Source of the DNA: Raillietiella orientalis
Lineage: Eukaryota
Direction of reading: 5' to 3'
Length of the DNA stretch: 64,000 nt
NCBI GenBank assembly: GCA_036172245.1
Contig: JAYWIR010000082.1
Coordinates: 62,001 to 126,000 of the forward strand
In this document: positions 3,961 to 61,552 of the stretch, piece after piece
Layout: each line of letters starts with the position of its first letter
Position numbering within the stretch: position 1 is the first letter of the stretch
Notes under the pieces: model-generated
The model's input: the letters and a program-made list of their open reading frames with translations, nothing else
What the model was told of the DNA's origin: nothing
The model's database searches: none
Translations under genes and position numbers: made by a program

Positions 3961-5064
3961 GTAGTAAACCCAGCCTAACCTAGCTGGTGTCATTTCACCT
4001 GAACTGACTTGGAAAGGAACTGGAAAAGTAGGATCATCTTGCTGAGTGATGCGTGTCTAAGAAATTCTTTCATGAAACTCGAATCTGTACACCGTGGTCC
4101 ACGTACTAAGTTCATTTCTTTGTCGCAGGCAGGAAGATGTACACACACCAACTCCCTCAGGGAACTGCGTACTGCCCGAAGTGATGCTACATTTTGACAT
4201 GCTGTTCAAAGGCGATTCACGCAGAAGTCGCGTACTCGCGAATGCGGATTCACGGAACTGAGGTTGCCTTCGTCACAGAGTGCGCGGACTCATGCGAACG
4301 GTCGCGAAAGGAATGACATGTACACATGTGGCACGTACATGATGATCCTTGACGAAACGAGGAACGCGTGCTTTCAATGTAGCGTCCGACCAGCTGCGTT
4401 CCCAGCGCGTAGCGTACTCACTGATGACCAAGCTGTGGATTCACGGAACAAGGAAGAAGCAATTCAGAAACCAACGGGAGAAATAATTTCAGATGACTTC
4501 AAGGGAACACAAGAAATTCAGCATCCTGATTGGAGAAAAGAATGTTTCCGATAGTCCGCATGTTTTTTCGTGTATCACTTTGCAGAGCACAGGCAAGAAC
4601 TTGACCAATGCACGGCTTGAGACTCTCCTCACTGCACTAGGGAGCTTGAGTGACGTCACGTCTGCAGCAAAGTATCTGCTCCGCAACGAACCCTGTTGCG
4701 TAGCAACAGAGATTTGTTTTCACGAAAGGCCAGCCAACGTAGACAGGAACATCGCCACCGCCCTCTCCTGGAGCAACCGACGATCGCGCCAGGAGCCACC
4801 CTTCCCCCCGAGGGCGCTCCCGGCTGCAGAACCGTGTCGCCATTCCTTCTCCACCGAAAATCCAGAGTTGCGTTCGCCGTGCCTAGGGGAGCGGTGCGTG
4901 AAGTCGGTGCCTTCGCCTCCCCAACTTTGGAATCCTCCGTTTCTGCAAACCTAACTTACAATGAAAAGCGAAAGAATGGAATTTCAACTGCTTTACCTTG
5001 GGTTCTCTGCTCCTTGAAAGCAACGCACACAAAGTTCCAAAATCGACTTTTTCAAAAAAAATCG

Positions 5065-6277
5065 ATCTTGGAACAGCGATTGGTACACGGCAGCCCGGAG
5101 CTCCGCAGACCAGCCCAGTGCGGGTTTCACCTGCGTCGCTTGGACGTTGTGGTTCGGGAGAACGCCTGGATCTCCTGCCTTCCCGGGAACTACTCTGCAT
5201 GGCTGCACGAGTCAGTCTCCACGTGGGAAAAGATCCACATTCCGGCGGGCACAAAGAACACTTGCCTGAAAAGGCACGCCCGCTGGACGCTGCAGGAGAT
5301 CGTACAGTCCCACGACAAGCTTATGTGGGCCCTGATTACTCCCCTTGCCCCAGAGCTGCCCTTCCTTATAAACGCCAGGGACAGTAGCGAGCAGGGGAAA
5401 TGGACAGTTTCCTGCACCATTGGCGGCAGGACACAACTGATCAAGGCGTGGACATCTCGGCAGCTAGCGGATGCTGCGACGCCGAGTGTCCCGCCCATCG
5501 GAATTCGACACTGGGGCGAGCTACTCAGACTATCTCCGGAGGAGATGAAGTGGCCCCCAGCGTCCTGGAACAGTGGATCCCTCCCCCTGAATTGGCAGGA
5601 GGTGGCGTTGCTTGTCGAACATTGGGGTTTACCCTGCAAAGCACGCCTGTATCACTCCACACGGGGGGCTGTGGATCCCCAGTGCGACCGGTGCGGGGAA
5701 AAAGAGACATTCCCCCACCTTCTACTTGAATGCGGTGCCATCTGCCCTCTCTGGGATCGTCTTGCGGCGATTCTGGACATTCGCGGAGGCGCCCCTAAGA
5801 ACGTTTTCAGTCGCCTCTTCTCTCGTGACGCCTTGTCCCTTCCCGCTTGTGTATCAGTTCTCTGCTGCATTCGAGGGATCGTGGCAGCTTGGAACGCCAC
5901 CAGAAGAAGGCGTCAGGCCAGCGGCAACGCCTTACACTGGACTCGCCTTTTCGTGCGAAGCGTGTGCAAGTGGCGCCATTTGGGCGCAGATAGGACGCAG
6001 CTTGTGAGGATCCTGAACAGGATCTAGAGGACCTCTCCGCGCGCACTGTGATCCCTTCCCCGCCCTCCCATCCCCAAAACATTAGTGCCCTCCCCGTTTG
6101 AATATTTTGTTTGTTTTGTTTGTTTTATCCCCTCCCCGCGCATCGGAAGGACCTCGCCGGTTCAACACCGGCAAACAGCAGGCTGCCTTGCTGTGGTGGA
6201 CCTTCGGGTTCGCCACGTGAAAATTCATTGTGCTTTTGTTTTTTACAAATAAACGCCCCGGTATATCCGGGTGTAAA
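5065..6277 (+). mobile_element. Family B retrotransposon, 5'-truncated, with an open C-terminal ORF2 segment and 3' UTR
   Basis: Open frame to 6027 with AATPS...RHWGELL, HWGLPCKAR, CDRCGEKETFPHLLLEC. 3' hairpins and AATAAA-CGCCCCGGTATATCCGGGTG at 6248-6273. Left boundary approximate. Confidence 0.85.
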
Positions 6278-6449: not shown

Positions 6450-7060
6450 CAAAGGTGAGCTCGGCAGTGGCAGATCACGGTTCTCTCATTGGACACGAAA
6501 GAGAGTGCATGGCCATTGTACAAAGTGCGGCGAGAAGGAGACCTTCATGCACTTCTTGGTAGACTGTTCTGCCCTCCTACCCCTCTGGAATCGTATCTCG
6601 ACGATCCTAGCAAACCCGGAGGGCGAACTCAGGGACATTTTCCAACGCATCCTCCCGCGTACCGATCTGCTACTAGCTGCATCCTTATCAATTCTCTGCT
6701 GTATCAACGAAATCGTGGCATGCTGAAACGTGACGAGCAGTGGGCAAAATATCAGGGACTCCATCCACTAGACGACGATCTCTTTGAGGAACGCGTCGAG
6801 ATGACCCCACCTGGGCAACGCAAAAACAGCACTCCTCAGCATCCTGAACGGCAGAGAATGTCTCCAGGCGAACAGTATGATTCCTTTCCTGAGCCCTCCC
6901 TTCCTTAAGAAACTTTCCCCTCTTCTTTTTACTTTTTCTATTTTTTTTTTTTTTTTTTGGTTTTCTTACCCCATTCGCTGGTGGAACGGATCTCACCGGT
7001 CTGCGTACCGGTTTTTGGCAACTCATTCGCTTGTGGTAGAACCAAGTGTTCTTCCACGAA
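6450..7060 (+). mobile_element. Family B 3' fragment (zinc finger and partial 3' UTR, terminal hairpin missing)
   Basis: HWTRKRVHGHCTKCGEKETFMHFLVDC; hairpins ACCGGT-ctgcgt-ACCGGT (6995-7012) and GTGGTAGAAC-caagt-GTTCTTCCAC (7033-7057). Confidence 0.8.
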
Positions 7061-8621: not shown

Positions 8622-10060
8622 CACCCGGATACTCCGGGACGTTTATTTAAAACCTCTAGCATGGTCAATACAAAAAACGTGGTACCAGGTCCCACTAACG
8701 GCCACGCAACACCGGACCTGCCGGGACGCAGACCGGTGAGGTCCTCCCCAACGGCGAAGGGGAAGGGAAAAACAAAATAAACAAAAAGAATTGAAATGGG
8801 AAGAAAGATGCTTTTTGAGGAAGGGAGGGCTGGGAATGGATCACTGTTTGCCTGGATTGGTCCTCGGCGTCCTGTTCAGATGCTGACAAGTGCTGCTCTT
8901 GAATTACTCCGGTGGAGCAATCTTGAAACGGTCTCCAAGACGATCGTGGTCCAGTGAATGGCATCCCTGCTTTCTTGGCCTCTTCTTTTAGCGTTTCGCC
9001 TTGCCAGGATGCCGCAAACACAGCAGAGAACTGCTAGTTGCGGCGGGTGGAAGTGCATCACACCTGTAGAGGTGGCGGAAAATGTCTTTAGGGTCGCCTA
9101 CAGGAAGATTCAGAATCGACGAGAGTCGATGCCAAAGTTCGCGGAGGGCGAAATAGCTGTCTATTAAGAAATGCGAGAAGGTTCCCCTTTCGCCGCACTC
9201 TGCACAACGGGCATCCACACTCCCTAGTGTCCAGTGAGAGAGGCGTGCTCTGCATAGGATTCTCCAATGCAAAAGGAGCAATGCAGTCCGTTGCCGCTTC
9301 ATCGGAAGGGTGCCACTATCCTAACACTCTGGGGCCACTTCACCTCCTCCGGAGGTATTGCGAGCAGCTCGCCCCAGCGGGCAAGTCCTTCAAACGGGAC
9401 GCTCGGGGTCGCAGCCCCCACTAGCTCCCGAGTTTTCCACGCCTTTAACGATTTCTTCCTGCCTCCGATGAGGCAGGACACTCCCCGCATTGCCCGTCCG
9501 TCGCTGTCCCTAACGTTCCTGAGAGAGGGCAGCACTGCAACAAGGCGAGTAAAAGGAGTCAACAGCAAATTTCGTGGGTTGTTTACAATCTCCTGCAGGG
9601 GCTGACGAGCGTAGGTTCCTCTTCGGAGGCAGGAGTATTCCGCCTCGCTCGGGCCGTTGATTTTTCCCCATGCGGAAACTGACTCCTGAGGCCAGTCGGT
9701 GGAGTTCGCGGTAAGACAGGAGATCCACGTATTCTTCCTCACCAGGGCAACCATCTGGCGCAGCTGATGGCCACAATAACCCAGTCTGCGTTGATTCGCC
9801 ACGAGGATCGAAGACAATCCTTCGCAGCCGGTCGCTCTGCAGGAGAGGAGCCGTGCGGGTTCACATCAGGGCGTTATCCAGAAGTTCGCCGCATGGATGA
9901 GTCTCCGAAATCGGAGCTGCCGCTCCATGCGCTCCAGCGTCAGCAGACCCAATCCACCGTCCCTGCGTGGAGCGTCCAAGTCTTCCAAGCGGACACCGGA
10001 CCTCCCACTGCCCCACAGGTCTTGCCTCAGAGGACTCTTGGTCGGTCTTTTGATGATTTG
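8622..10060 (-). mobile_element. Family B retrotransposon, post-RT region to 3' end
   Basis: Minus frames: LWGSGRSGVRLEDLDAPRRDGGLGL (post-RT motif), AATPSVPFEGLARWGELL, HWTLGSVDARCAECGERGTFSHFLID; ends AATAAACGTCCCGGAGTATCCGGGTG. Confidence 0.85.
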
Positions 10061-23700: not shown

Positions 23701-23975
23701 TCTGTAAATATACCTTTGAGTCTCTAATGTTCATGAAATTTGTTTTGCCTGTCTCATTTCGTTTATCCATGTCCGTGTACGCACGGGGACCGTGGCCGGT
23801 GCAACTTTTTGTGGGCATTTTTCCTCTTGGGAATTCCACTCGACATACAACCAACGCGTAGTGCCTTTGTGTGTTTCGGGCGTGCGTTCGTGTCCTACGA
23901 GAGTCCGGCAAACGGCTGTTCCCCATTCAATTCTCGAACCGTAAGGGAGAGCAGCGTACAATATCTTCTCCAAGA

Positions 23976-26900
23976 ATGGAATCGGTGACTCTTGCCAATG
24001 TACCATCAGGTTTAAGTGCTTTGTATTCTGCTTGTAGTAATCTGTATCCAAACCAATCCAACGCTTTACAGGTTTCAACTCTGAAAAAATTTTGGTAGTA
24101 TTTTTATTCCTTATGTTGTATGTTGTAATTTGTAAAAAAAAAAGAAAAAGTGAAAGTTGGTTTTTCCAAAGACGCCATGGTGATTCTTAGTAATGTAAAA
24201 TGAGATTTATGGAAGTAACAAGCCTGTTTGGCTCAAGCATGGGGATGTTTTTCACAGTACATAACTTAGAGAAACATAGAACTTAAAGCAATCATTTGAC
24301 CTTCTACGTTTGGAATTTTAATGCTTCGCCGAATTTGGAACTCGGGACATATTCTTCTTGATATGACAGATTACTGCAAGCATTCATGAGACGTTTAAAC
24401 AATTTTACCGAACCAATATATGTTACCAATGAATTGTTTTCATGTGCTTTTTGCAACATTATTGAGAAATAAACCAACTGATTGAGATTCCGTGTTTAAT
24501 TTGGTAGCAACCTCTATTTTTATCAAAGAAAAGTGCAAGGCATTTGCTGTTTTTTTTTTTTTCGTTTTTGTATGAATTAAATCAAATCTGTAACCATTGT
24601 AGACAGGAATTCATATTCAGATTTCATTATATCCATAGTTGAGATATAGTTTGGACATGTTACGAAGTAAAATATAGTCACTACTTTGATCCTGCCATGC
24701 TTTTTGAGAATTTTCGAGGATTTGCCAGTAGTGTCATTCTCATATTGTTTTGAGCATGTAAAATCATATTTTCAATAGACTTTGGATATGTATATTTGTA
24801 ACTCAACGCAGAAATACAAACGAGTAATCAATTTTTCTTTCCATTATACAAGGCTTGGAGGTCCTGATCCGCTTGATTATGTTAACATGTATTACAATAA
24901 TGGAGATTCTTCTGCTGGCATTCCACCCCACTGGCATTATGTTAGGTGATGTAATGATTATTGTCTCAGTGATGTAATGATGTTTTAGTTTCGGGTTATC
25001 TGATCTTCATGGGGACAATAGAGTTCATCATAGGAAAGATAGTGATCTAATTAGTGGTTTTGGAATAGAACTGACATTCAGATTGAAGTGTGAACTCAAT
25101 GAAACAGAACCACCATTGTGGCCAGCCAAACTCTTACAGTTATTAGCTTCTTATGTATTTCAGTCAGGTAAGATATTTTGTTCCCTATTTAAGTTTGCCT
25201 AGTTTTGCTCATTTGCATTGTTCAATCTTCAGCTAAGCATTCATTGATTTGAACAAATGCACTGTTTGGATACTTTTGTTCACATCAGTGGTGTAATTTG
25301 GTGTTAATTCCATTTTTGCCAAATAGTTTTACGTATTTTTTCCAGTATTGTGTTTTTTTGTTTGTGTGATTGTATCCAGTGGAAGTTTCCTCCATTTTTT
25401 AATTTTTTTTTCACATCAGCCTTAAAGGGTGGGCAGTCTAAGAGAAGTGGGAACCACTTTGCCTTATGTTACTTTCCTGAAGAGGAATGAGTTCATCAGA
25501 GCCATAGATGCATATGTCCTTGGGAAATGTTTCTCTGCAGTGGAAACAAACCATCATGCAACATGAAGTCCCTGCACATCCAAAAATAGCTCTTAAGTTA
25601 AACATCGTTTTGGTCATGTGTTCCAAAAAAAAAATATAATTCTACTTGGGAAGGAAAAGGTCTAGAGTATGTGAAACTAGTCAAATGTTTTTGTCGTGCA
25701 GTTTTGATTTCTTGAAGCCATAGGAAATATTATTTCTTGTGAATGTATCATGTGTTAGCCATTGCTGAGGGTTGATGTGCTATCCTATCCTTTGAAGTTC
25801 CCTAACTAGAGCCAAACATTCACTCAGGGGAATTTATGTTTGTTGTGGTACAAAAGGATTATTTTGTTAACCTGTTTGACACTACTCAGATGACCAATAT
25901 TCCAGCCTGATGCATGTGGCCATTAGTGTTGTACTTAAAAACTAAGTATTTTTATTTATGGACAGACCATATGAAATCAGCATGCAACATTTGGAGTTTG
26001 CTGCCATTGCAAACATTATGTTTGATCAGCTAATCAAGTTTTGTCATCATTATGTGTTCTGACTAGTTCTTTTGAATGGATTTCTCACAAAGCTTGTTCT
26101 TATAACAGTATTGGTCCATCCATCTTTTACATGAATTGCTTGACTTACTGTTCAAAAAACATATCCTAATAATCTAAAAGCAAGTCTCATTTATTTGATG
26201 TCCCTATGGAGAACTAGCTGAGAGATGATGTCATTTGTTACTTTAGTATTTTCTCTTCAGGCAATGTGCTGTGTGCTGGAGACCATATACCATGGCACAG
26301 ATCTCTAGATGGCAGTGATTCACGGATCCAACATATGTTGTTAGCAGCAGACTGTCAGTTACACTCTCTTAGAACACCCTTTGGCAAAGTGGATTTTATT
26401 CAGGTTGTGGGAGTATGTGCTGAAGAACTTCATGCTGCACAATGGTGGAATGGTCATAGTATAATCAGTATCATGCAGAAGCTTCCAGGGTATGCTATGC
26501 CTATACGAATAGGAAAAATTATTGAGCTAGATTTGGAAATGCCTGTTTGATCACTGACATGAGAAGAGGTGAAACCATTTTTGATATTTCCCCTCAGGTG
26601 GAAGATGAAGTGAATCGGGGCATTCAGGAGCAGGGATCCAATCTTTCTGGTGAATATTAACTTGTTGAAGCAGAATGTTAGCAGACTTCCAATTCAAGGA
26701 GTAAGTGCTCATTGTTACTGGCAGAAGTATCAGGGAGCGGAAGATGTGTCTGATGAGGAAGAAGGAGATGAAGTAGAGATGATGCCATTAATGCGTGTCC
26801 TGTCAGGCGTGCACTTATATTTTGATCACGATGCTGGAAAATTGCTGCCACTTGTTCTTCAAGGACGATTACATCATGGACGCCATTTTACTTTCAGTTG

Positions 26901-27179
26901 CCCAGTAAATGGCTTAGCAGTAACATTTGTGACACCAAAAGTAGAAGGAACCTGGGCTAGTGAACAGCAGCTTTATGTTGCTCGTGGCTGGTGGCTGCAT
27001 ATACTTTTAACAGAACCTATGCAACATGAAGTTCTTGCAGATTTGCACTTGCTGGATTCTAAAGAAGTAAGCACATAATATCCTGAATATTCAACCTTCT
27101 GTTTTAGTTAGTTCTTCCTCACACATTCTATTGGTGTAAACACCATTTGGTATTCACTATTGTAGAAAATGAATACTGA
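23976..27179 (+). CDS. Sufu: Suppressor of fused, 7 coding exons (23976-24094, 24853-24945, 24989-25167, 26261-26489, 26531-26649, 26699-27066, 27108-27179), 392 aa
   Basis: GLSALYSACSNLYPNQSNALQV..FWLGGPDPLDYV, PHWHYVSFGLSDLHGD, GFGIELTFRL, GDHIPW, LITDMRRGETIF, GSNLSGVS, GRLHHGRHFTF. All introns GT-AG; exon sum 1179 nt is in frame. Confidence 0.93.
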
Positions 27180-30040: not shown

Positions 30041-30271
30041 TGGTCATTTGCTCTCATCCATGTGTAGCCTTAAAGTTTGGTAGTTTTCCCACACTCGATG
30101 TCAGAAGTTCCGTAGCCCCTAGCCATATTCTGGTTTCTCGACAAAATCGCCTCGAAGCCAAAAAATAGTTATTCGAATCAACAATGGAATGTGCAAATAC
30201 ATATTTATAGGAATGTATAAACTGGACTATTTTTGTGACTTCACGACAAGATCAAATAATCAAAAGGAACA

Positions 30272-32242
30272 CTTCAGCAACTTCGTGAGGGCGATACTCC
30301 AAAAAACCAGTACTGCCGTATCAAAATCAACGGTCAAGAGACGGCAGCAATCAGGATGGAACGGGGAGTCCGGCAGGGCGACTCGCTAAGTCCGATGCTG
30401 TTCGTGATCTATATGGAGGCGCTGTCCTCTTACATCGAGAGGAGCGGACGCCTAAATGGAATTTCCATCGATGGTCAGCAACTTACCCATCTGGCGTACG
30501 CGGATGATCTCTTCTTCATCAAGGGAGAGAGGAATCAGCGAGCGTTCCTGGATGTGGTAGACCTCATGGAACAGGGCCTGGGTCTGAAGATCAACGCCCA
30601 GAAGAGTCAGCTTTTACCCGTCGGAATCCTGGACCTCTCCGCTCTCACGGGGAGTGGATTCCGTACGGTGGATACGGCCAAGTACCTGGGAGTCTACATC
30701 GGCGACGACTCTGCATCGAAGCTGCTGTGGACGGAAATCCTGGGGAAAACGGCCAAGGAAGCAGCAAAGTACACTCGAGTGGACTTTAACATGAAGCGAA
30801 GAGCCAACCTGTGGAACGGAGTACTTCTTCCAAAGGTACTCTTTGGGGCGGCCTTCGCAAGAATGAATAAAGAAACCACGAGAGAAGTAGAGAAGCTGCA
30901 GCGTAAAACACTGTGGGGCCACTACCGCCCAAGAGTTCGTCTTAAACCCCTGTGTCGTCCCAGGGAAGAAGGCGGTTCCGGGATGAAGTTGCCTGCACAT
31001 TCCATGGAAATCATGGATACGCGACACATCCTGGACATAGCCACTCACTGGGATGACTGGCCATATGCGGCGCACAGGGCCTACGCGTTGTTGCTCAACA
31101 ACTCGAAAGGCCTGATGACTGCGCTGCTAGGCCGAGCAGGAGAATGGATCTCCATCGACCCGACCTGGAGACGAAAACAACGGCTCGTGCGAAAGCACAA
31201 GATGAAGATCGTGCCAAGAAGCAGGGAACTCTGGCAGGAGGAATCCATCCTGGTGATCCCTTGGATGCTTCCGGTCCCTCCGGACACGAGAAGCTGGATC
31301 TACCAGCGGCCCAGAGTTACCCTCTCAACGGATCCAGGAATGGCGCCGAGGAGGATACCTACATCATTCTCGTGTACTCCGGTACATAGAGATGATGCTA
31401 GGGAGGTTTACCCACCAGACCCGCGAGGTGTGGATTAACCACAACGACTTCGCGTGGTCCAGGGTAACCAGAATGAACCTCCGTAGGATGATCAAGGATG
31501 AAGACAAAGACACTAGTGCCCTCCAAGAAGCCGCCGACCGCTACGGGAGCGATCGCATCAACCTGTTGGCGATCGGCACAACGCTCTGGAGGAGTGACCT
31601 TCCGCCGGACACCCAGGACAACCTCCTGATGTTCTACCATGGAGGAATCCTGACGGGGTCCAGACTACAGCACTTCACGAGAAGAAGGGAAGACAGAGAC
31701 TGCACGGCGTGTGGTGACACCGACACAAGACTTCACATCTTGACGTGTCCCACACTGCTTCACGACTGGCTGATCCTGAAAAGGATCATCGGACGGATCA
31801 CCAGCTCCGTAATGGAGATCCTCGCCGGGATGTTTCAGGGAGATGGTAATGTTCCCTGTTACAATCCCATGGTGAGGACGACCATCGCCCTCTTCATCAC
31901 CGCCATACTTGTGCGGTGGTGGAAGATGAGGAAAGCCAGGAGAGCCGCACCTCCGATGGAGATCCTCCAGGGACTCCTGAAGAAGGAAATCAGCATCAGG
32001 AACTGTGGAAGAATCCAAGCCTGGACGTACAGATTCATCCTGAAGAGGATCGAGGACGACGCCCGGGACCATCCAGCTGGAATCCCACCCTGAAAAGCAG
32101 AACTCTAGTGACCCCAAAGAACTTCAAAGTGAAAAAGTGGTAGTATAACGAGTGAATGAGAGTGTGAATGTGAAATTGTAGTGTGAATGTTATTTTTATA
32201 GAAAAATAAATTTACCCCACCCCTTGTGGGACCTGGGGAAAA
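30272..32242 (+). mobile_element. Family A 3' half (RT, C-terminal zinc finger, 3' UTR), few lesions
   Basis: RGVRQGDSLSPMLF, LAYADDL, KYLGV, LCRPREEGGSG, CTACGDTDTRLHILTC; ends AATAAATTTACCCCACCCCTTGTGGGACCTGGGGAAAA. Confidence 0.92.
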
Positions 32243-52100: not shown

Positions 52101-52232
52101 TGTGGTTAATAAATTCAAGTTTTGTTTCAGATTTAAAGTTTTGATGCAAATCATTTCAGACTGATTTGCAATTTGAACATACTTGAAATTTTCATGTTGA
52201 TGTGATTTTTTTTAATCCATTTTATCCTAAAC

Positions 52233-55200
52233 ATGCCTAAACCAAAAGCAGCAGAGGAGCAAGATAAACTTACTAGAATAGCAATTGTAAGTTCTGATAA
52301 GTGCAAACCCAAAAGGTGCAGGCAAGAATGCAAAAAATCATGCCCTGTTGTAAGAATGGGGAAATTATGTATTGAGGTGACACCTAATGATAAAATTGCA
52401 GTTATATCCGAAGAGCTATGCATTGGTTGTGGAATTTGCGTAAAGGTCAGTTTTTACATAACAAGAAAGTGTGATATCTATCTACTGTTTTTCGAGATCG
52501 CAGTTTAGAACTTAATTTGTGTGATCGACAGTAAACAGCGTTTATTCAGTGTATATTCTCTAGTGTTGTATTTTGCTTAATTCTTGATTGTATATGTGTG
52601 AGTATTAGGAACAATATTTGATTTCCAGTGAGCTGTATCTAATTTTTGTATATTATTCAGGTTATTTTCACCCAAAATTAGCTTACACCAAAAATGTGCC
52701 AATGGAAGGATTTCGGATGAATTATCAGAATTAGTGTTCATTTGTTGGAGGGTCTTTATGATGCCTTTCAAAATTACTTGTCACAAACACAGTTAACCTT
52801 TAAAAGCAAATTAATTTGAAGTAACTTCAGATATTAAATTGCATGAATTTAATGATGTAACATTCATAGGGATATAAAATTCACTCATGCAATTTTTCCT
52901 AATAAATGTGTATTTAACAATAAAGCAGTATTAATTTCAAACAAAAGGTGATATCAAATAATGAAATTTTACCCAAATCTGTGTCCCTCAACTGCTTGTA
53001 TAAAATTCTTGAATTTTGCCTCAGTAATCATTCAAAACTACTAAGTTCATCATGTAAAACAATTTGTGTTTAACCACAGTTATAAGTGTGATTCCCTCTG
53101 GAATGTGTGATTCTTATTTCTCACGGCATTCTAACAATTGCATCTTTCATGGTGACAGAAATACTAAAATGGTTCTCTACTCAGAGAAATAGAAAATTAG
53201 ATTTTCGGTACAGTCATGTTATCACATTTATGCTGCATATTGCACAGAAGGGGCAGGATTGTGCTGCCCAATAATGCTCTCTAATCTGGATCGTAATGCT
53301 TTTGTCATTGATAGGTGAAATGGCTTTTTTATGTTTATTATGAAATCCAAAGCTGACATTATTTTATTATGAACTTTATAAACATGACTAAATATTTTCC
53401 TGTTCAGCATGTTTTTCATAATTAAAGCAACTCATTTATAGCTTTTTCTAGAGAGAAATAAAATATTGTAACAAATTTTTTGTTCCCTGCTGTACTTGGT
53501 ATGTTTTATGAGGAACCAAAGTATGATTCCTTTTTTAGGACATGGATTAGGGCATAAAAACGATCCACTTGTTAATCTTTTTATGTGCACATATGTGTGC
53601 ATGTTTCAAGATTGTATTTGTTTTTTTTTTACCAATTTTTTTTTTTTATCTGATGTTTCTGCTTTTTTGGTTTATTCATATTTCAGTGTACATTCACATG
53701 TTGTTATTTTGTCTAGTGTTTTATTTTGTTTTTAAGAATGTGATGCTCATATCTTGATCTTTCATTTATGCTTGTGCAGTATTGCTTTATTCAGTTTAAA
53801 CATTTTTACTTTTACATATGAAAATATCATTTTAGCCATGCACTATCTATTCTAAGGTCTTCATTAGGTTTATCAGACTATATGTGAGAAGTTTTATGTG
53901 GCATTATTTATTTACCTTGCTGTTAAAGTAGAATTTGAAATTAGAATCCCTATTTTACTCAGAATTGGGACCAGTGAAAACCAGTTTTTCTCAGTCTTAT
54001 TACTTTTAGTAACCAAGAATTCATTGTGATTGAAATGAAATTGTGTTAGTTTAAGTCAGTGATCCAAGAGCAGTCATATGTTCAGATGCTGTCATGTAAA
54101 TGTTGCGTTTTTGTTTTTGTTTTGTTGAGCCACCAATTGTTTCTAGGAAACACGTAGATACTAGGAAAAACTTCGATTACTTATGTATCTAAGTGTTTGT
54201 AGATAATTATTCAAACATTCTCATTTTAAGATAGTAATCAGAATTGTCATAATCAAAATTACCTTATTATAGTGCAGGATTGTGTTTTTATATCTGCTTT
54301 ATAGATCATCAGTAGTTTAAAAACCAGTAAGGAACTTTAATCTGGCATGTTATACATGAGTGCTTATGACAAGTAATTACATGACATTTCTTTAACAATT
54401 CTGTGATTATAAGTTTCAAACGTATAATCGTTGCATAACTTATTTGACACTAGTCAACAGCTTATTAATGATTTCCATCTTTTGAATTGTTTAAAAAGAA
54501 CTTTCTGTAAAGTTGTTGACTTTTAATTGTAGATACTGTTGATTCTGTTATCATTGTAGATGACTTTTCATGTTTGCATCATAGCAAGCTGAACAAGCAT
54601 TTGTATTAGCATTATTCTGTAGACACCAGAAGTACTTTTCGGGAATTATTCAATCTGATGCTTGGAGCAAATTGTCTTGTTATTTTTGATAGGTTTATCT
54701 TATCAGATCCTAGCATTTTATTTAGTCAAAAAATGCTAGTATTTAATAAAGTAATTGTAAATGTTGCAAAAGCTACTTATAATTTGTTTTGTTCCCTATA
54801 AGAGCTTTTTCTTTATTATTTTTTCAATTTATTACAAAAAGCTTAATATAAAAAAGTGGGTTATCAATGGGAACTAAGCTTTATTAGAGATGTGTTAGAT
54901 TTTTTTGCAGAGGATGGTTTATCAAGCTTTTTAATGCATTTGTTGAATAAATTGGAATTAGTGCATTAATTCTGTTTCAAAACTTAGCAAATTTTCAAAA
55001 TTTTTGAATTTTTAGGAGGGAGTAAATTTTTATGTTAATATTTCTGCTGAATTTATTATTGTTCTCTAGCTTGGCTAGTTTTGCATATTTCCACAATTCT
55101 ACTCTTCAAGTCTGTTCTATCTAGTCATCTTTTCTTTTGAGCTTTGTTAGTGCAAACTTCATTTGTCTGCATTGATTTTTGAGTTAATGTGAATGTTTTT

Positions 55201-57639
55201 ACGATGATTTTTTTTACAGTAACATGACTTTGATTATGAAGTGAAGTATGCACAGTCTTCTACATAAGTTGGATAGACCAAAAATTTCTTTTGAAGATAG
55301 ACTGTAACAGAAGGCAAATCCTTTTTTGGTGGCTTACAGAATCTCCTATGCATACATTGTGAATTATTAAGAGACAGGTTGAGATAAAAAGATCTTAGGA
55401 AATGAAAAATTTTGTTTTAAAAACTTTTGGATTAAAGTTATCTGTTTCCTTTCTGTGATGCCTCCTTGTAACGTTTATCAAAGAAATATGCTTTAATCAC
55501 AGAGTAAAATTTTTTTTAAAGCGATGCTTGTTAATTTCTATTGAAAATTGAAATCATTAAAAACTAGCATGTCATGTGTGTGTGTGTGTGTGTGTGTGTT
55601 TTGATCATGGCTAAGTATATCGTCAATCATTTTAGAAATGTCCCTTTGAAGCCATCACAATCATCAATTTGCCAAGCAATCTTGAAAAAGACACCACTCA
55701 TCGTTATTCTCAAAACTCTTTCAAACTGCATCGTTTGCCTATCCCACGCCCAGGAGAAGTCTTAGGATTAGTGGGCACAAATGGGATTGGAAAATCTACT
55801 GCTCTCAAAATTTTGGCTGGAAAATTGAAGCCAAACTTAGGCAGATATAGTGTGAGCAAAAAATTCAGCATTTTGATATCCTCTGTTGCGTATAGGATCC
55901 TCCAGACTGGACAGAAATTTTGACTTATTTCAGAGGGTCAGAGCTTCAGAATTATTTTACAAAAATTCTCGAAGATCATCTGAAAGCCCTGATCAAACCA
56001 CAATATGTTGATCAGATTCCCAAAGCAGTCAAAGGATCTGTACAGCAACTGCTTAACAAAAAGGATGAACAAAAAAACCAGGATGAGGTGTGCAGCTTAT
56101 TGGGTAGGCTTAGCTACTGATGCTAGGTTTGCATGAAATGGGATTCGAGTTTGCCGAGTTGGTTCCTAAGATATCTTTTTGTAGATCTGCAGAATGTCAA
56201 AGATCGCCAGATAGAGGATTTGTCAGGAGGAGAATTACAGCGATTTGCTTGTGCCATGGTATGCATCCAGCAGGCCAACATTTTCATGTTTGATGAGCCT
56301 TCTAGCTATTTAGATGTAAAGCAACGTCTGAATGCAGCAGTAGCTATTCGTTCCCTTAGTGGTGTAGATAGGTATTTGGCTTTTTTCCCATGCTTGTATA
56401 TTGTTTGTAGGTATGTTATTGTAGTGGAACACGACCTTTCTGTGTTGGACTATTTGTCTGATTTCATTTGCTGTTTATATGGAGTTCCTGGTGTATATGG
56501 AGTAGTCACCATGCCATTCTCTGTGCGAGAAGGTGAGAACAAACATTGCAATACTGATCAGTGGCTTGCATCCAGGCATCAACATCTTTTTGGACGGTTT
56601 TGTGCCTACAGAAAATTTGCGTTTCCGAGAAGATGCTCTTGTCTTTAAGGTGGCAGAATCAGCTACCGAAGAAGAAGTGAAACGCATGTGTCGTTATACC
56701 TATCCTTCCATGTCTAAACATATGGGCGATTTCCATTTATCAGTGAATGAAGGAACATTTAGTGATTCAGAAATTATTGTCCTATTAGGCGAGAATGGAT
56801 CAGGCAAAACTACTCTTATCCGGATGATGGCTGGTAATTTGAAACCTGATGAAGGTTCTGGTAAGAAATTCTATGGGAGAAGGCTTGTTTTTAACGTTTC
56901 CGCTTTCTACTAGGGGAGATTCCACAACTAAATATTAGTTATAAACCTCAGAAAATCAGTCCCAAATCTGTCTGCACAGTGAGACAACTTCTGCATGAAA
57001 AAATTCGAGATGCGTACATCCATCCTCAGGTGAAAAAATAAACTTTAACGTTTCATAAATGTGTTCTGCTGCAGTTCGTTACTGATGTTATGAAACCACT
57101 TAAGATCGATGACATTATTGATCAAGAGGTGCAGAATTTGTCTGGTGGGGAACTCCAGAGACTTGCATTGGCTCTGTGTTTGGGAAAACCAGCTGATGTT
57201 TATCTTATTGATGAACCATCTGCCTACCTAGATTCAGAACAGCGTCTTGTTGCTGCACGTGTTATCAAAAGGTAACCAGCATAAGATCTGGCGTGTCTTA
57301 GGCTTGTAGATTCATTTTGCATGCCAAGAAGACAGGGTTTGTAGTGGAGCATGATTTCATCATGGCGACCTATCTAGCTGATCGGGTGATAGTATTTGAA
57401 GGCACACCATCAGTGGAGACTGTGGCTTGTTCTCCACAAACTCTGCTCAATGGAATGAACAAATTTTTGGAACAGTTGCAAATTACTTTCAGACGGGACC
57501 CCAATAACTTTCGTCCCCGTATCAATAAGCTTAATTCTGTAAAGGTAAGGTGTAATCCTAACTGTGAATCTGAATAAAATTCCCTTGTTAGGATTGTGAA
57601 CAGAAGAAATCAGGAAATTTCTTTTTCCTAGAGGATTGA
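52233..57639 (+). CDS. ABCE1: ABCE1 / RNase L inhibitor (pixie), 10 coding exons (52233-52445, 55636-55851, 55896-56103, 56185-56371, 56411-56532, 56576-56860, 56914-57029, 57075-57271, 57310-57544, 57592-57639), 608 aa
   Basis: FeS domain [27 protein letters not shown]; Walker A GTNGIGKS and [16 protein letters not shown] twice; [24 protein letters not shown]; exon sum 1827 nt is in frame. Confidence 0.97.
55575..55599. repeat. (TG)n microsatellite
   Basis: TG run in ABCE1 intron 1, just upstream of exon 2. Confidence 0.9.
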
Positions 57640-57855
57640 TTTCTACAATAAAGATTCCAGGACAAGTTGTTTTTATTGCAGTGCACCCGTTGGCACGGCC
57701 CAGAAAGGCCGGAGGGGCACAAAGCAATTGTTTTTCTAGTATTTACTTTGGGACCATCTTTTCAGGTGTTTGGTGTTCTGCTTTTCCCAACTTTCTGCCA
57801 TTAGTTGCTTCACAAGAGGACTTGCTACTGGTAGGAAGTTAAATGTCTTTATTGG

Positions 57856-60800
57856 TCAAAGAGGGGAGGGATGGAGGGCCCATGTATGCTTGATCATATC
57901 AGCTGCCTTCTCAGCTATCATGATGACAGGTGCATTGGTATTGCCAGAAACTATGCTTGGCATAATGGAACAATCTGCTACTCGCAATCTGTGTACTCCA
58001 TGCACCCTGTGCGTATTTCATAAGTGACCAAATGCTCTTCCTTTTACCGTAATTCCGGGTCCACAACAGTGCTTGCATCCCATCTAGGTCCCATTTTGGC
58101 TGTACCACAGGGGTGGTAAATAGTGGAAGTGTAATGATGAGTCAGACATTGCAGATAGGCATCAGAAAGAAACTGATAGCCTTCACAACCTGGGAAAGGC
58201 TTGGAATACAATTGAGTACCATATTTTTGGAATGCTTTGGTCTGAGACATAGTCAGCACAAGCTTTAAACCTGAGTGTGCAACAAAGGATGAGAAATCTC
58301 TGTTCCATCCAGCCATTACCATCAACCAGAACTTTGACATCATCTGGATGTTTGAGATAGTTTGGGATGATGCAGGGATGTACATAAGGATCACTGCTGC
58401 GCAACTCCAAATATCCTATACTTTTTGGTCGCAGAAGTGTTGGGAATGCTGACCAGGACTCTTGGAAAGCAATAGGCTTGTAGTACTGGTCCCACACCTC
58501 ATCCCTTAATCCTTGCATCACCTTAATCACTCTTCCTCCGTCTGATGCAGGAGTTGCAGAGACAAAATGGAATTGCATGTCTGGAAAATCCTGGGAGGGA
58601 TTGGCATAACGTGTATTTACGAATGCCAGTCCTTCAACTCCACCCAGTGTTGTGAGAGGACCTCCATTATTAAATGCGTACTGCAGAAGGGTAGAGGGTG
58701 TTTCTAAGCGCTTTTGTAATAGGGAAACCGATTGATTGACGAGAAATGTCAAGCCTCCTATGCCGATGTGATCTTGCAGATTCCTCCCTACTTGCAAGTT
58801 TTTCTTTACTGGAATCTACCTTTTTTTTTAGGATGACACATTTTATATGTTTGTTACCCCTATTGACGATAGATGATGTTGTGGTCCTATTCCGGAAAGC
58901 ATAAGCAGTTGAGCAGATCCAATGCTTCCTGCTGATAGAATTACTTCGCGTTTGGCGAAAACGCGACGAATCTTGTTTTTCCTCTCATATTGTACTCCAT
59001 ATGCCACATTGTTTGACCCAATCAGGACCTACGGTATTATCATTTTATTTCTGTGATTGTAGGCAGAAATGAATGCTAATCCTGGATCCAGCAACTCGAA
59101 TCTGGAAAATCTGGCACCTATCATCATCAAACGAGTGACGCGAGAACTACAAGAACTTATCAGTAATCCACCGGAGGGGATTCGTGTTGAAGTGAGTGAG
59201 TCGGATGTTACGGATATCCAGGCTTGGATCAATGGTCCTGATGGAACCCCTTATAATGGAGGAATTTTTAGACTCCGACTTGTCTTAGGCAAAGATTTTC
59301 CTCAGTGCCCTCCCAAAGGATATTTTATTACCAAAATTTTCCATCCCAACGTGGCCAGTAACGGTGAAATTTGTGTGAACACGTTAAAGCAAGATTGGAC
59401 GCCCACCACCGGTATCCGACAGATTCTTTTGGTCATAAGATGTTTGCTCATCATGCCCAATCCCGAATCGGCACTAAACGAAGAAGCCGGCAAGCTTTTA
59501 CTCGAACGATATGATGACTATTACTCGCGCGCAAAAATGGTCACGGAGATCCATGCGTTTCCCCGACCCACGGATGAACCTGCCGTCAAAAAGCAATCGT
59601 TTCTCGACACCAAAGATGTGCATGTGGACAAGAGACGTCCTTTCAAAGATAAAAAGAAAACGCTGAAGCGCTTGTGAATCTGTACAGGTTATTAAAAAAA
59701 AAAAAAAAAATTTCCTCGTGTTGTGCAGGCAATAAATATGAATTTTCATGTGTTAACTTACTCTGTGGACGTGAGCTCCTTGCGTTATGTGCAGATTCCG
59801 CCTTTTGCTTGCAGGTATTAAGAACGCTCTTGCAGTGGAACAGCGAGATCCCTTGCGTACTGTGCCTTGTGGAGTAGAGAAACCTAAAACCGAGCAATAA
59901 ATCTGTTTTAGAATATGCACCGTTTACCCGTCTGAGTATGACCGTTAGCGTCGATTATATCGTATCCCATCTCTTTACCAGCTTTAAGAAAAGCCTTTGC
60001 TAAAGGAGAGTGCCACGCTGCTTCTTTTACGGTCAGTAAACCTCCCGTTCCATGATATTTTTCTAAGTTGCAATTTTAAACAGAGCTGTATTTTCAAAAT
60101 GAGCGTACTATTCTTGGCCAGTTGAGGATTGCGGTTGTCCTCTGATTTTATGAAATACGGCAATACATCATCATAGCTCCATCCGTAATTTCCAGCCGCC
60201 GCCCAATTGTCATAGTCTTTTTTATTGCCTCGTATATAAAGCATGAAATTTAAAACACTGCTACCGCCAAGCACTTTCCCTCTTGGCCAGTTGCAAGACT
60301 AAAAGAAAACAGATTTCAGAAATTTCAATGCATTTTGTGTGCCTTGGAAGAGAATGTGCCAGACGGGCGCTACTACTTTCATGGGACATTTATCCAAGGG
60401 ACATTTCGAGGATTCGTCTTGGAAAACCGATCTCGGAACTTTTTTTTTTTTTTGCACTTGCAACCATCCCGTGTTCGTGTACGGAGTGGTTGCAAGCAGC
60501 AAAAGCACGCAGTTCGTGATCCCACAAGTAAAATATATAGTAGTTCACGGGCATACTGAATCATAGGCTCTAACATTTTCATTGACGAGTGTTTTTGTTT
60601 CGTTCGTCGTGTGTTTGCACCGCCTCTTCGAGCAAACTGTGGCGCTCCTCGTGGAACGTAGAAGGAATGGCTTAATCCACAGAGAGGGTGATGGAAACGA
60701 AAGTGTCGTCTTCTTCGTCACTCTGCAGATTGAATGTCAGTTTAATGTAAGCGACGCAGGGATTCGTGATGCAACTTTCCACGTGGGTTGCAAGCGACGT

Positions 60801-61552
60801 GCCAAAAAAGTCTCGGGACGCAAGTCCAAGAACGAAAAGAAAATGCCCCCCGAAAATCCCTCCTGATCGTGCGGGTGGTGTCTTGATAGCAAAGGACACC
60901 AACCAAGTCAGAAAACGCCAAACGCCTCACATATTCACAAGTCGAGATTCCTTGTTTTTCACACGCGTGTCAATTAAATCGTTACCAGGTTTAGAATCCT
61001 AAAGATTGCATCCGAAAACAGTCCGGGCTCTAATCTATGCTATCACATACCTGATTGATCATTGCCTGGCATGCGGACGGTTGAGGCTCCGTTTTGTATT
61101 TCCAATCGAATTTTCCCAGCTGAAGAAAACTAGCGAGAGCAGGGATGTCTGAGACTTCCGTCTCCTGATACCCGGCTTCCAGTAAGAGGACACTAACTCT
61201 AGGATCTTCCGAAAGCCGTGATGCAAGCACTGCTCCAGCAGAGCCACCGCCAACTTTCGGAAAACAATAAATGATTGAAGATGGCAACCATGAAACAGTT
61301 GCGTTCGTAAACGTTTGTACATTGGCAACAGTTTCAGAACTTTTGTTCAGGGAATATCAGTATCTTACCTACAATAAAATCGTACGTCTTCAGCGGATTT
61401 GCCGTGTCGGGAATACGCAACTCTGGATTACCGGAATCTTTTGTTATCCTGATGAGTAGCAGCCAGGGAAGAAAAATTGGCATGAACCAAGCATGTGCTC
61501 CTAAACCAAGAGAACGAGATACCGCAATCGCACCAAGATCACTCCCTATCAT
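57856..61552 (-). CDS. GMC oxidoreductase (glucose dehydrogenase [FAD]-like), 9 exons (61552-61369, 61253-61051, 60298-60109, 60062-59928, 59883-59762, 59028-58858, 58815-58320, 58270-58048, 58006-57856), 624 aa
   Basis: [80 protein letters not shown]; exon sum 1875 nt is in frame. Confidence 0.95.
59069..59677 (+). CDS. UBE2S: Ubiquitin-conjugating enzyme E2 S, intronless CDS nested antisense in GMC intron 5 (59029-59761)
   Basis: [60 protein letters not shown]; basic C-terminal KKKTLKRL typical of UBE2S. Confidence 0.93.

Follow-up and report, generated by a model that had tools for sequence, protein, structure and literature searches.

The DNA analysed here is a 64-kb stretch of the Raillietiella orientalis genome, and this whole stretch is referred to below as the window. 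Near one end of it, a gene for an E2 enzyme of the UBE2S type lies in an intron of a GMC oxidoreductase gene, and a gene for ABCE1 lies upstream of UBE2S. The features of the locus are given below, with positions counted from the first letter of the window.

52233–57639, plus strand: ABCE1, the same-strand upstream neighbour of UBE2S, 10 exons, 608 aa, joined ORF clean
57856–61552, minus strand: GLD-like GMC oxidoreductase, the host gene, 9 exons, 624 aa, from homology and the joined ORF
58858–59028, minus strand: GMC exon 6, separated from the downstream UBE2S ATG by 40 nt
59029–59761, minus strand: GMC intron 5, the host intron, 733 nt, phase 0, GTAAGT...AG, from homology and the host ORF
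59040–59045, plus strand: Inr-like TCATTT (a match to TCAKTY, the Drosophila consensus), candidate start that would give a 27-nt leader
59043–59062, plus strand: T-rich tract with TTGTAG at its end, candidate splice acceptor; the UBE2S ATG follows after 6 nt
59069–59677, plus strand: UBE2S CDS, single exon, 202 aa plus stop, from matches to Pfam UQ_con and human UBE2S
59694–59710, plus strand: run of 17 A (A17), 16 nt past the UBE2S stop, possible poly(A)-tail relic
59731–59754, plus strand: likely UBE2S poly(A) site, with AATAAA at 59731–59736, CA at 59747–59748 and TGTGTT at 59749–59754, read directly
59762–59883, minus strand: GMC exon 5, 84 nt past the UBE2S stop

The exons of the host gene were mapped using three arthropod GLD-like proteins. 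Its coding sequence runs on the minus strand from an ATG at 61552 to a stop codon at 57858–57856, and the nine exons, when joined, form a single uninterrupted ORF that aligns end-to-end with arthropod glucose dehydrogenase-like proteins at 50–55% identity over ~570–600 residues. Pfam matches to GMC_oxred_N and GMC_oxred_C fall on five exon ORFs, and the FAD-binding GxGxxG motif is found in exon 2 as GGGSAG. The introns measure, in order, 115, 752, 46, 44, 733, 42, 49 and 41 nt. Intron 5 is bordered on the minus strand by a GTAAGT donor at 59761 and an AG acceptor at 59030–59029, and the exons on either side of it carry consecutive parts (115–152 and 157–208) of the Pfam GMC_oxred_N profile. 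With the borders placed by homology and by the 624-aa host ORF, the entire UBE2S CDS falls inside this one intron on the opposite strand, where it occupies 609 of the 733 nt (83%) and leaves a 5′ flank of 40 nt (59029–59068) and a 3′ flank of 84 nt. The preliminary description had reported an intronless CDS and an intron of just these lengths, the same filled proportion and an ATG 40 nt from the exon, and all of its coordinates hold. Elsewhere at the locus, the ORFs of GMC intron 2 matched no Pfam family apart from one sub-threshold match, and no noteworthy ORF was seen in intron 1 of ABCE1.

The guest ORF extends from an ATG at 59069–59071 to a TGA at 59675–59677, a length of 609 nt that is not interrupted by an intron. 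Its product matches the UQ_con family of Pfam over residues 22–157 (2.1e-39). Against solved structures, the best match is human UBE2S (PDB 1zdn, 5l9t and 6qhk) at 3e-69 over residues 5–165, and six UBE2S chains score from 3e-69 to 8e-67, whereas the next E2 family scores 1.7e-30. The ORF shares its catalytic core with the human protein, and its Lys-rich tail is of the same type, ending in L-K/R-R-L. Every named protein with a subfamily label among the best 120 protein matches to the ORF is labelled E2 S, and the best relatives in a search of 5.8 billion proteins are 56–72% identical to it over the aligned part. In an alignment of 15 sequences, comprising the ORF and 14 named UBE2S proteins, the HPN motif (H92, P93 and N94) and the catalytic Cys (C102) are invariant throughout, as is the C-terminal LKRL (L199, K200, R201 and L202) in which the Lys-rich extension of the ORF terminates; the linker between core and tail in the ORF is the shortest of the 15. 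The N-terminus is complete, with the alignment starting at residue 5 and the ORF being ~3–4 residues longer than named UBE2S proteins, and an upstream coding exon is therefore unnecessary. In the systems studied, UBE2S serves the APC/C as the E2 for extension of K11-linked ubiquitin chains, and the L-K/R-R-L peptide has a role in APC/C binding. By its sequence, the ORF is a complete UBE2S orthologue, to which no other E2 family comes as near, and K11-linked chain elongation with the APC/C is its putative activity here.

Comparison with a close relative of this organism was provided by RNA run X1, a metatranscriptome available in contig form (0.04 share of words), from which eight contigs were compared; these leave 58134–59222, and with it the 5′ end of UBE2S, as well as 59579–61053 uncovered. 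Two contigs that lie over 59223–59578 in UBE2S are 94–98% identical to it, with 3 differences in 151 letters and 13 in 221. All 12 of the differences listed are synonymous, comprising 11 at third positions and one CTA/TTA leucine exchange; the gene is therefore under selection, and the pattern indicates strong purifying selection on UBE2S between this organism and its relative. That UBE2S is a functional gene nested antisense in the GMC intron is close to certain.

Splicing is also evident in the same run, where the 41-nt intron of GMC has been removed in one contig. The UBE2S contigs themselves are short, and an RNA origin is unprovable for an intronless gene, with DNA in the library being possible. 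A different UBE2S locus of that organism is likewise a possible source of these contigs.

The neighbourhood of UBE2S is densely packed. The introns of ABCE1 measure 3190, 44, 81, 39, 43, 53, 45, 38 and 47 nt, and none of the 17 coding introns mapped in ABCE1 and GMC is shorter than the 38-nt one (57272–57309). ABCE1 and GMC are convergent, with stop codons 216 nt apart. An AATAAA occurs only 2 nt past the GMC stop, and another lies 8 nt past the ABCE1 stop (at 57647), followed by a T/G-rich stretch. The closest named relatives of ABCE1 among the best 120 matches are from scorpions (88% identity), and those of GMC are from Artemia (55%), a planthopper (54%) and a spider (52%). Judged by these features, the genome is very compact and arthropod-like. 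Poly(A) signals placed 2 and 8 nt past neighbouring stops weaken any argument from lack of room.

Two poly(A) hexamers are found past the UBE2S stop codon, namely ATTAAA at 59691–59696, which is overlapped by A17, and the AATAAA at 59731–59736, which the preliminary description had already located correctly. The combination of this second hexamer with the CA and TGTGTT that follow it is a likely poly(A) site, and its elements end 7 nt short of host exon 5. A textbook site of this kind inside the intron means that the UBE2S transcript can terminate within the host intron; in the proposed model, it would end at this site, just within the intron.

At the 5′ end, the TTGTAG claimed earlier as an acceptor 6 nt before the ATG does lie there, at 59057–59062, and was scored with a splice-site weight matrix built on the 17 mapped introns of ABCE1 and GMC. 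The site ending at 59062 scores 8.42 bits, which places it at the 99.1st percentile of 7694 AGs and above 15 of the 17 true acceptors in leave-one-out scoring. Sites scoring at least as high number ~72 in the 128 kb of strand, or roughly 1 per 1.8 kb, and an acceptor of this strength would fall within 40 nt of a given ATG by chance in ~2% of cases. TTGTAG is also the acceptor of three of the nine ABCE1 introns. The acceptor of host intron 5, by comparison, has an A-rich tract and scores only 4.2 bits; the T-rich tract lies on the UBE2S strand and is therefore unexplained by the needs of the host. Taken together, the strength of the acceptor, its placement and the failure of the host to account for the tract suggest that the site is probably used.

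A donor for this acceptor must be sought beyond the intron. The only usable one within it, a GT at 59034, yields an intron of 29 nt, which is below the 38-nt minimum, as had been pointed out before. The best upstream candidates on the plus strand are 58691 (95.9th percentile, giving a 372-nt intron to 59062) and 57831 (98.1st percentile, giving a 1232-nt intron), the latter located between the convergent poly(A) sites of ABCE1 and GMC. Such donors are not enriched, with three or four at the 96th percentile being expected in 1.4 kb. In the proposed model, transcription would start upstream, over the opposite-strand coding exons of GMC, and a short non-coding leader would be joined to the acceptor at 59062; the supply of this leader in cis by an upstream non-coding exon is a reasonable possibility, adopted with reservation.

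Acceptor-like sites also precede the ATGs of other genes in the window. That of ABCE1 is at the 99.7th percentile and lies 103 nt before the ATG; that of SUFU, 1 nt before the ATG, is weaker, at the 90.7th percentile. No good acceptor was found within 240 nt before the ATG of GMC. The sites at ABCE1 and SUFU would fit common 5′-UTR introns as well as they would fit spliced-leader (SL) trans-splicing.

The preliminary description had also concluded that the intron leaves no room for a promoter, which does not follow, given how tightly signals are packed here, the Inr-like TCATTT at 59040 and the possibility of overlap with the exon. Core promoters are able to extend into exons of the opposite strand. 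Whichever model is chosen, SL trans-splicing among them, the distances imply that transcription starts within 40 nt of GMC exon 6 or else upstream of that, so that the core promoter would extend over GMC coding sequence or be located past it. From the same distances, GMC exon 6 would serve either as the UBE2S promoter or as part of an antisense transcript contributing to the leader.

How the UBE2S transcript begins can be explained in several ways besides a leader spliced in cis. One is a short, unspliced leader, with transcription starting inside the 40-nt flank (for example at A 59042, with a resulting 5′ UTR of 27 nt) or somewhere in the ~65 nt that precede the ATG, a promoter that overlaps GMC exon 6, and a TTGTAG that only happens to resemble an acceptor. 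The TCATTT at 59040 is the only TCAKTY in 58700–59070, where 0.07 would be expected per 40 nt; TCAKTY is the fly (Drosophila) Inr consensus, and its derivation from Drosophila counts against the reading. The last upstream ATG, at 59001, opens a 23-codon uORF whose TGA overlaps the UBE2S start codon, and no ATG occurs between 59004 and that codon, which has an A at −3. The sequence CCAATCAG at 59018–59025 is similar to an NF-Y box, and the extreme compaction of the neighbouring UTRs is in keeping with so short a leader. On the other side stand the low chance probability of so strong an acceptor this close to the ATG and the absence, by eye, of a TATA or DPE match at the correct spacing. An unspliced start is conceivable, though rather doubtful.

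An alternative that would make use of the acceptor is SL trans-splicing, in which 59062/59063 would receive the leader of an SL RNA and the upstream outron would be lost. This would suit a strong acceptor 6 nt before an ATG with no usable donor in the 340 nt upstream, as well as the sites before the ABCE1 and SUFU ATGs. In the available parts of two reports, SL trans-splicing is described from two groups of arthropods, the copepods and the amphipods (PMC7986045; PMC4664967), whose trans-spliced genes, like UBE2S, have a strong acceptor a few nt before the ATG and no nearby donor; the resemblance is nevertheless confined to the acceptor. The best named relatives of the present genes are from a scorpion (ABCE1) and from Artemia and insects (GMC), the 64-kb window contains no SL RNA gene (0 Rfam matches), and GMC is without a good acceptor before its ATG. 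The promoter problem would also remain, with the outron being transcribed across GMC exon 6, and this explanation is considered improbable. Least probable by far is a link to ABCE1, whereby read-through past the ABCE1 poly(A) signal and splicing to 59062 would yield a dicistron or a chimera. ABCE1 lies on the same strand, 1.43 kb upstream; if its phase-0 donor at 57545 were joined to 59063, the reading frame would continue into that of UBE2S (a 1-in-3 chance), and the donor at 57831 lies 190 nt past its stop. Read-through is disfavoured because ABCE1 has its own poly(A) signal 8 nt past its stop, with the T/G-rich stretch beyond, and UBE2S would be poorly translated from a dicistron. No X1 contig joins ABCE1 and UBE2S, which carries no weight given the thin cover.

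The origin of the guest gene is a separate question. The preliminary description proposed a retroposed E2, and the intronless CDS and the A-run after the stop agree with this, whereas a target-site duplication, which would also be looked for, is absent. At the rate of the neighbouring genes (17 introns per 3702 nt of ABCE1 and GMC CDS), 2.8 introns would be predicted in the UBE2S CDS, and there are none (Poisson P0 = 0.06). The run of 17 A, which lies where the earlier account put it, is the longest A-run on the plus strand of the window, in which A or T runs of at least 14 number three in 64 kb; by arithmetic from these counts, the chance of an A-run of at least 14 within 40 nt past a given stop is ~0.1%. 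Excision of the segment from 59063 or 59069 to 59710 leaves an intron of 85–91 nt, and 14 of the 17 mapped introns span 38–115 nt. LINE-type reverse transcriptase ORFs are present in the same window. In the proposed scenario, a UBE2S mRNA copy would have been reverse-transcribed into a formerly short GMC intron of ~85–91 nt, with A17 as the trace left by retroposition, possibly a relic of the poly(A) tail. On balance, retroposition is the origin toward which we lean, with some hesitation.

A candidate target-site duplication was examined at 59047–59074 and 59710–59743, which look similar by eye. Their alignment score of 15 is that of the null, for which the mean is 14.5–15.1; a score of 15 was reached by 874 of 2000 shuffles and, in controls drawn from real sequence, by 100 of 187 and 482 of 1153. 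A repeat search likewise found no direct repeat pairing the two flanks of the UBE2S insert. Old insertions can lose their target-site duplications.

The competing account is that UBE2S is not a retrogene at all but an old resident of the intron, or a gene moved there as DNA, which has lost its introns, with A17 being either incidental or a functional 3′-UTR element between ATTAAA and AATAAA. Compact genomes commonly lose introns without retroposition, and short, highly expressed genes in them are often intronless. In addition to the lack of a target-site duplication flanking the insert, A17 begins within the ATTAAA hexamer at 59691–59696, which would speak against retroposition in that tails are not normally added there. 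The run is also unbroken despite measurable divergence from the X1 relative, and so pure a run is unusual in an insertion whose age allows for ~4.5% divergence from X1. Against this account, the longest A-run lies beside the stop of the only intronless conserved gene in the window, a coincidence of ~0.1%, and the naming of many UBE2S records from arthropods as “isoform X1/X2” is an indirect hint of multi-exon orthologues. The account is a credible one that falls somewhat short of conviction. A neighbouring GMC or ABCE1 gene was seen beside a UBE2S relative at none of 57 metagenome loci, where the best relative is 68% identical. The explanation preferred as a whole, that of a functional, nested and probably retroposed UBE2S with a spliced short leader, is put forward tentatively.

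Nested genes are a known arrangement. For example, intronic genes are reported to make up ~6% of Drosophila genes, and 2mit is nested antisense in an intron of tim2, according to the portions of PMC3786989 available. The preliminary description placed insect GMC clusters in a Flo-2 intron, and for four insects this is right, going by the available portion of PMC1891103; there, GMC is the guest, whereas here it is the host, and those clusters have no bearing on this single GMC gene. In comparison with both arrangements, as presented in these extracts (PMC3786989; PMC1891103), the intron here is only 733 nt long, the guest fills 83% of it, and the promoter of the guest and the splice signals of the host share flanks of 40 and 84 nt. 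Some retrocopies, according to the accessible text of PMC4772013, draw on upstream exons or on the promoters of neighbours, and amphioxus SYCP1 provides a further comparison on the subject of retrogenes and retrogene replacement (PMC5803294, in part). The route by which such copies are documented to become expressed is the recruitment of a promoter from a neighbour or of new 5′ exons. Like the functional intronic retrogenes covered there, UBE2S is intronless, has an A-run past its stop, is borne in an intron and shows purifying selection. It differs from functional retrogenes in its lack of target-site duplications, and from the host-exon chimeras documented in the accessible text of PMC4772013 in that these are sense and UBE2S is antisense. 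A limited literature search found no publication describing UBE2S as the guest of a GMC gene. The arrangement belongs to an ordinary class of nested genes, this one being probably retro-copied, and as it stands it calls for no new mechanism. Only two things about it are unusual, how closely the guest fits its intron and the antisense overlap that this forces, such that the splice signals of the host and the start and end signals of the guest share 40 and 84 nt.

A more far-reaching interpretation, regarded as unlikely, is that UBE2S is an orphan retrogene that has replaced its parent and would be expressed only through the opposite-strand coding sequence of its host, either from a promoter in GMC exon 6 or by way of a leader exon, located among or beyond the last GMC exons, that is spliced to 59062. 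In the latter case, the two genes would be interlocked, each having exons in an intron of the other. In a bolder variant, 59062 may accept a spliced leader in an arthropod lineage without described trans-splicing. If this were the sole UBE2S of the organism, the promoter or leader on which an essential mitotic enzyme depends would overlap the opposite-strand coding exons of an unrelated gene. Were this true, the locus would be well suited, as a clean natural example, to studies of transcriptional interference, of dual-use sequence and of promoter acquisition by a retrogene in a highly compact animal genome.

UBE2S, a single-exon plus-strand gene lying antisense within a 733-nt intron of the GMC oxidoreductase gene, is preceded by a candidate TTGTAG acceptor. 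Joined to the phase-0 donor of the penultimate exon of ABCE1 (57545), the plus-strand neighbour upstream, this acceptor (first base after it, 59063) would yield a hypothetical ABCE1-UBE2S chimera that is predicted to be in frame. The same site is spanned by an inverted repeat (59044-59073; 10 nt, 90% complementary, arms 10 nt apart), giving a small hairpin with the TTGTAG acceptor in its loop and the UBE2S start codon in its stem. This arrangement around acceptor and start codon may be due to chance.

Acceptor-like sites also precede other start codons. In ABCE1, one that scores at the 99.7th percentile (52111-52130) lies 103 nt upstream of the ATG, and a 5′-UTR intron is therefore likely in this gene. 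Upstream of SUFU (ATG 23976), a 34-nt intron-like unit, GTAAGG...CCAAG (23941-23974), ends 1 nt before the ATG and resembles the 29-nt GT...TTGTAG unit upstream of UBE2S.

Compaction is extreme at the 3′ ends of ABCE1 and GMC (57637-57858), where the convergent stops are separated by 216 nt and AATAAA follows the stop by 8 nt in ABCE1 and by 2 nt in GMC. The poly(A) sites of both genes flank a GC-rich stretch (about 57683-57725). In ABCE1 intron 1, a (TG)n microsatellite (55568-55609) occupies the end of the intron, just ahead of its acceptor (55635).

Besides the intron that houses UBE2S, the GMC gene has one other long intron (752 nt, 60299-61050). Within 60440-60497 it contains a T14 run, which reads as A14 on the host strand and is there preceded by a 10-13 bp hairpin:

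About 60457-60469 and 60483-60496, read on the host strand: arms of the hairpin preceding A14, 752-nt GMC intron

Together, A14 and hairpin may represent the tail of another retro-insertion. The rest of the window contains no further copy, and the ORFs of this intron matched no Pfam family. LINE-like ORFs (zf-RVT, RVT_1) occur at 4654-6027 and 30260-31438, and two inverted repeats sharing 68% identity (6501-7011 versus 8721-9222) lie near a T18 run (6941-6958). GC content is about 50% over the window's first 35 kb, versus 31-35% in 36-55 kb.

One further exon bears on the lineage itself:

26614-27078: SUFU C-terminal exon (Pfam SUFU_C, 9.5e-31)

A word-indexed protein search returned zero relatives of this exon, a result pointing to a lineage that is either fast-evolving or unsampled.
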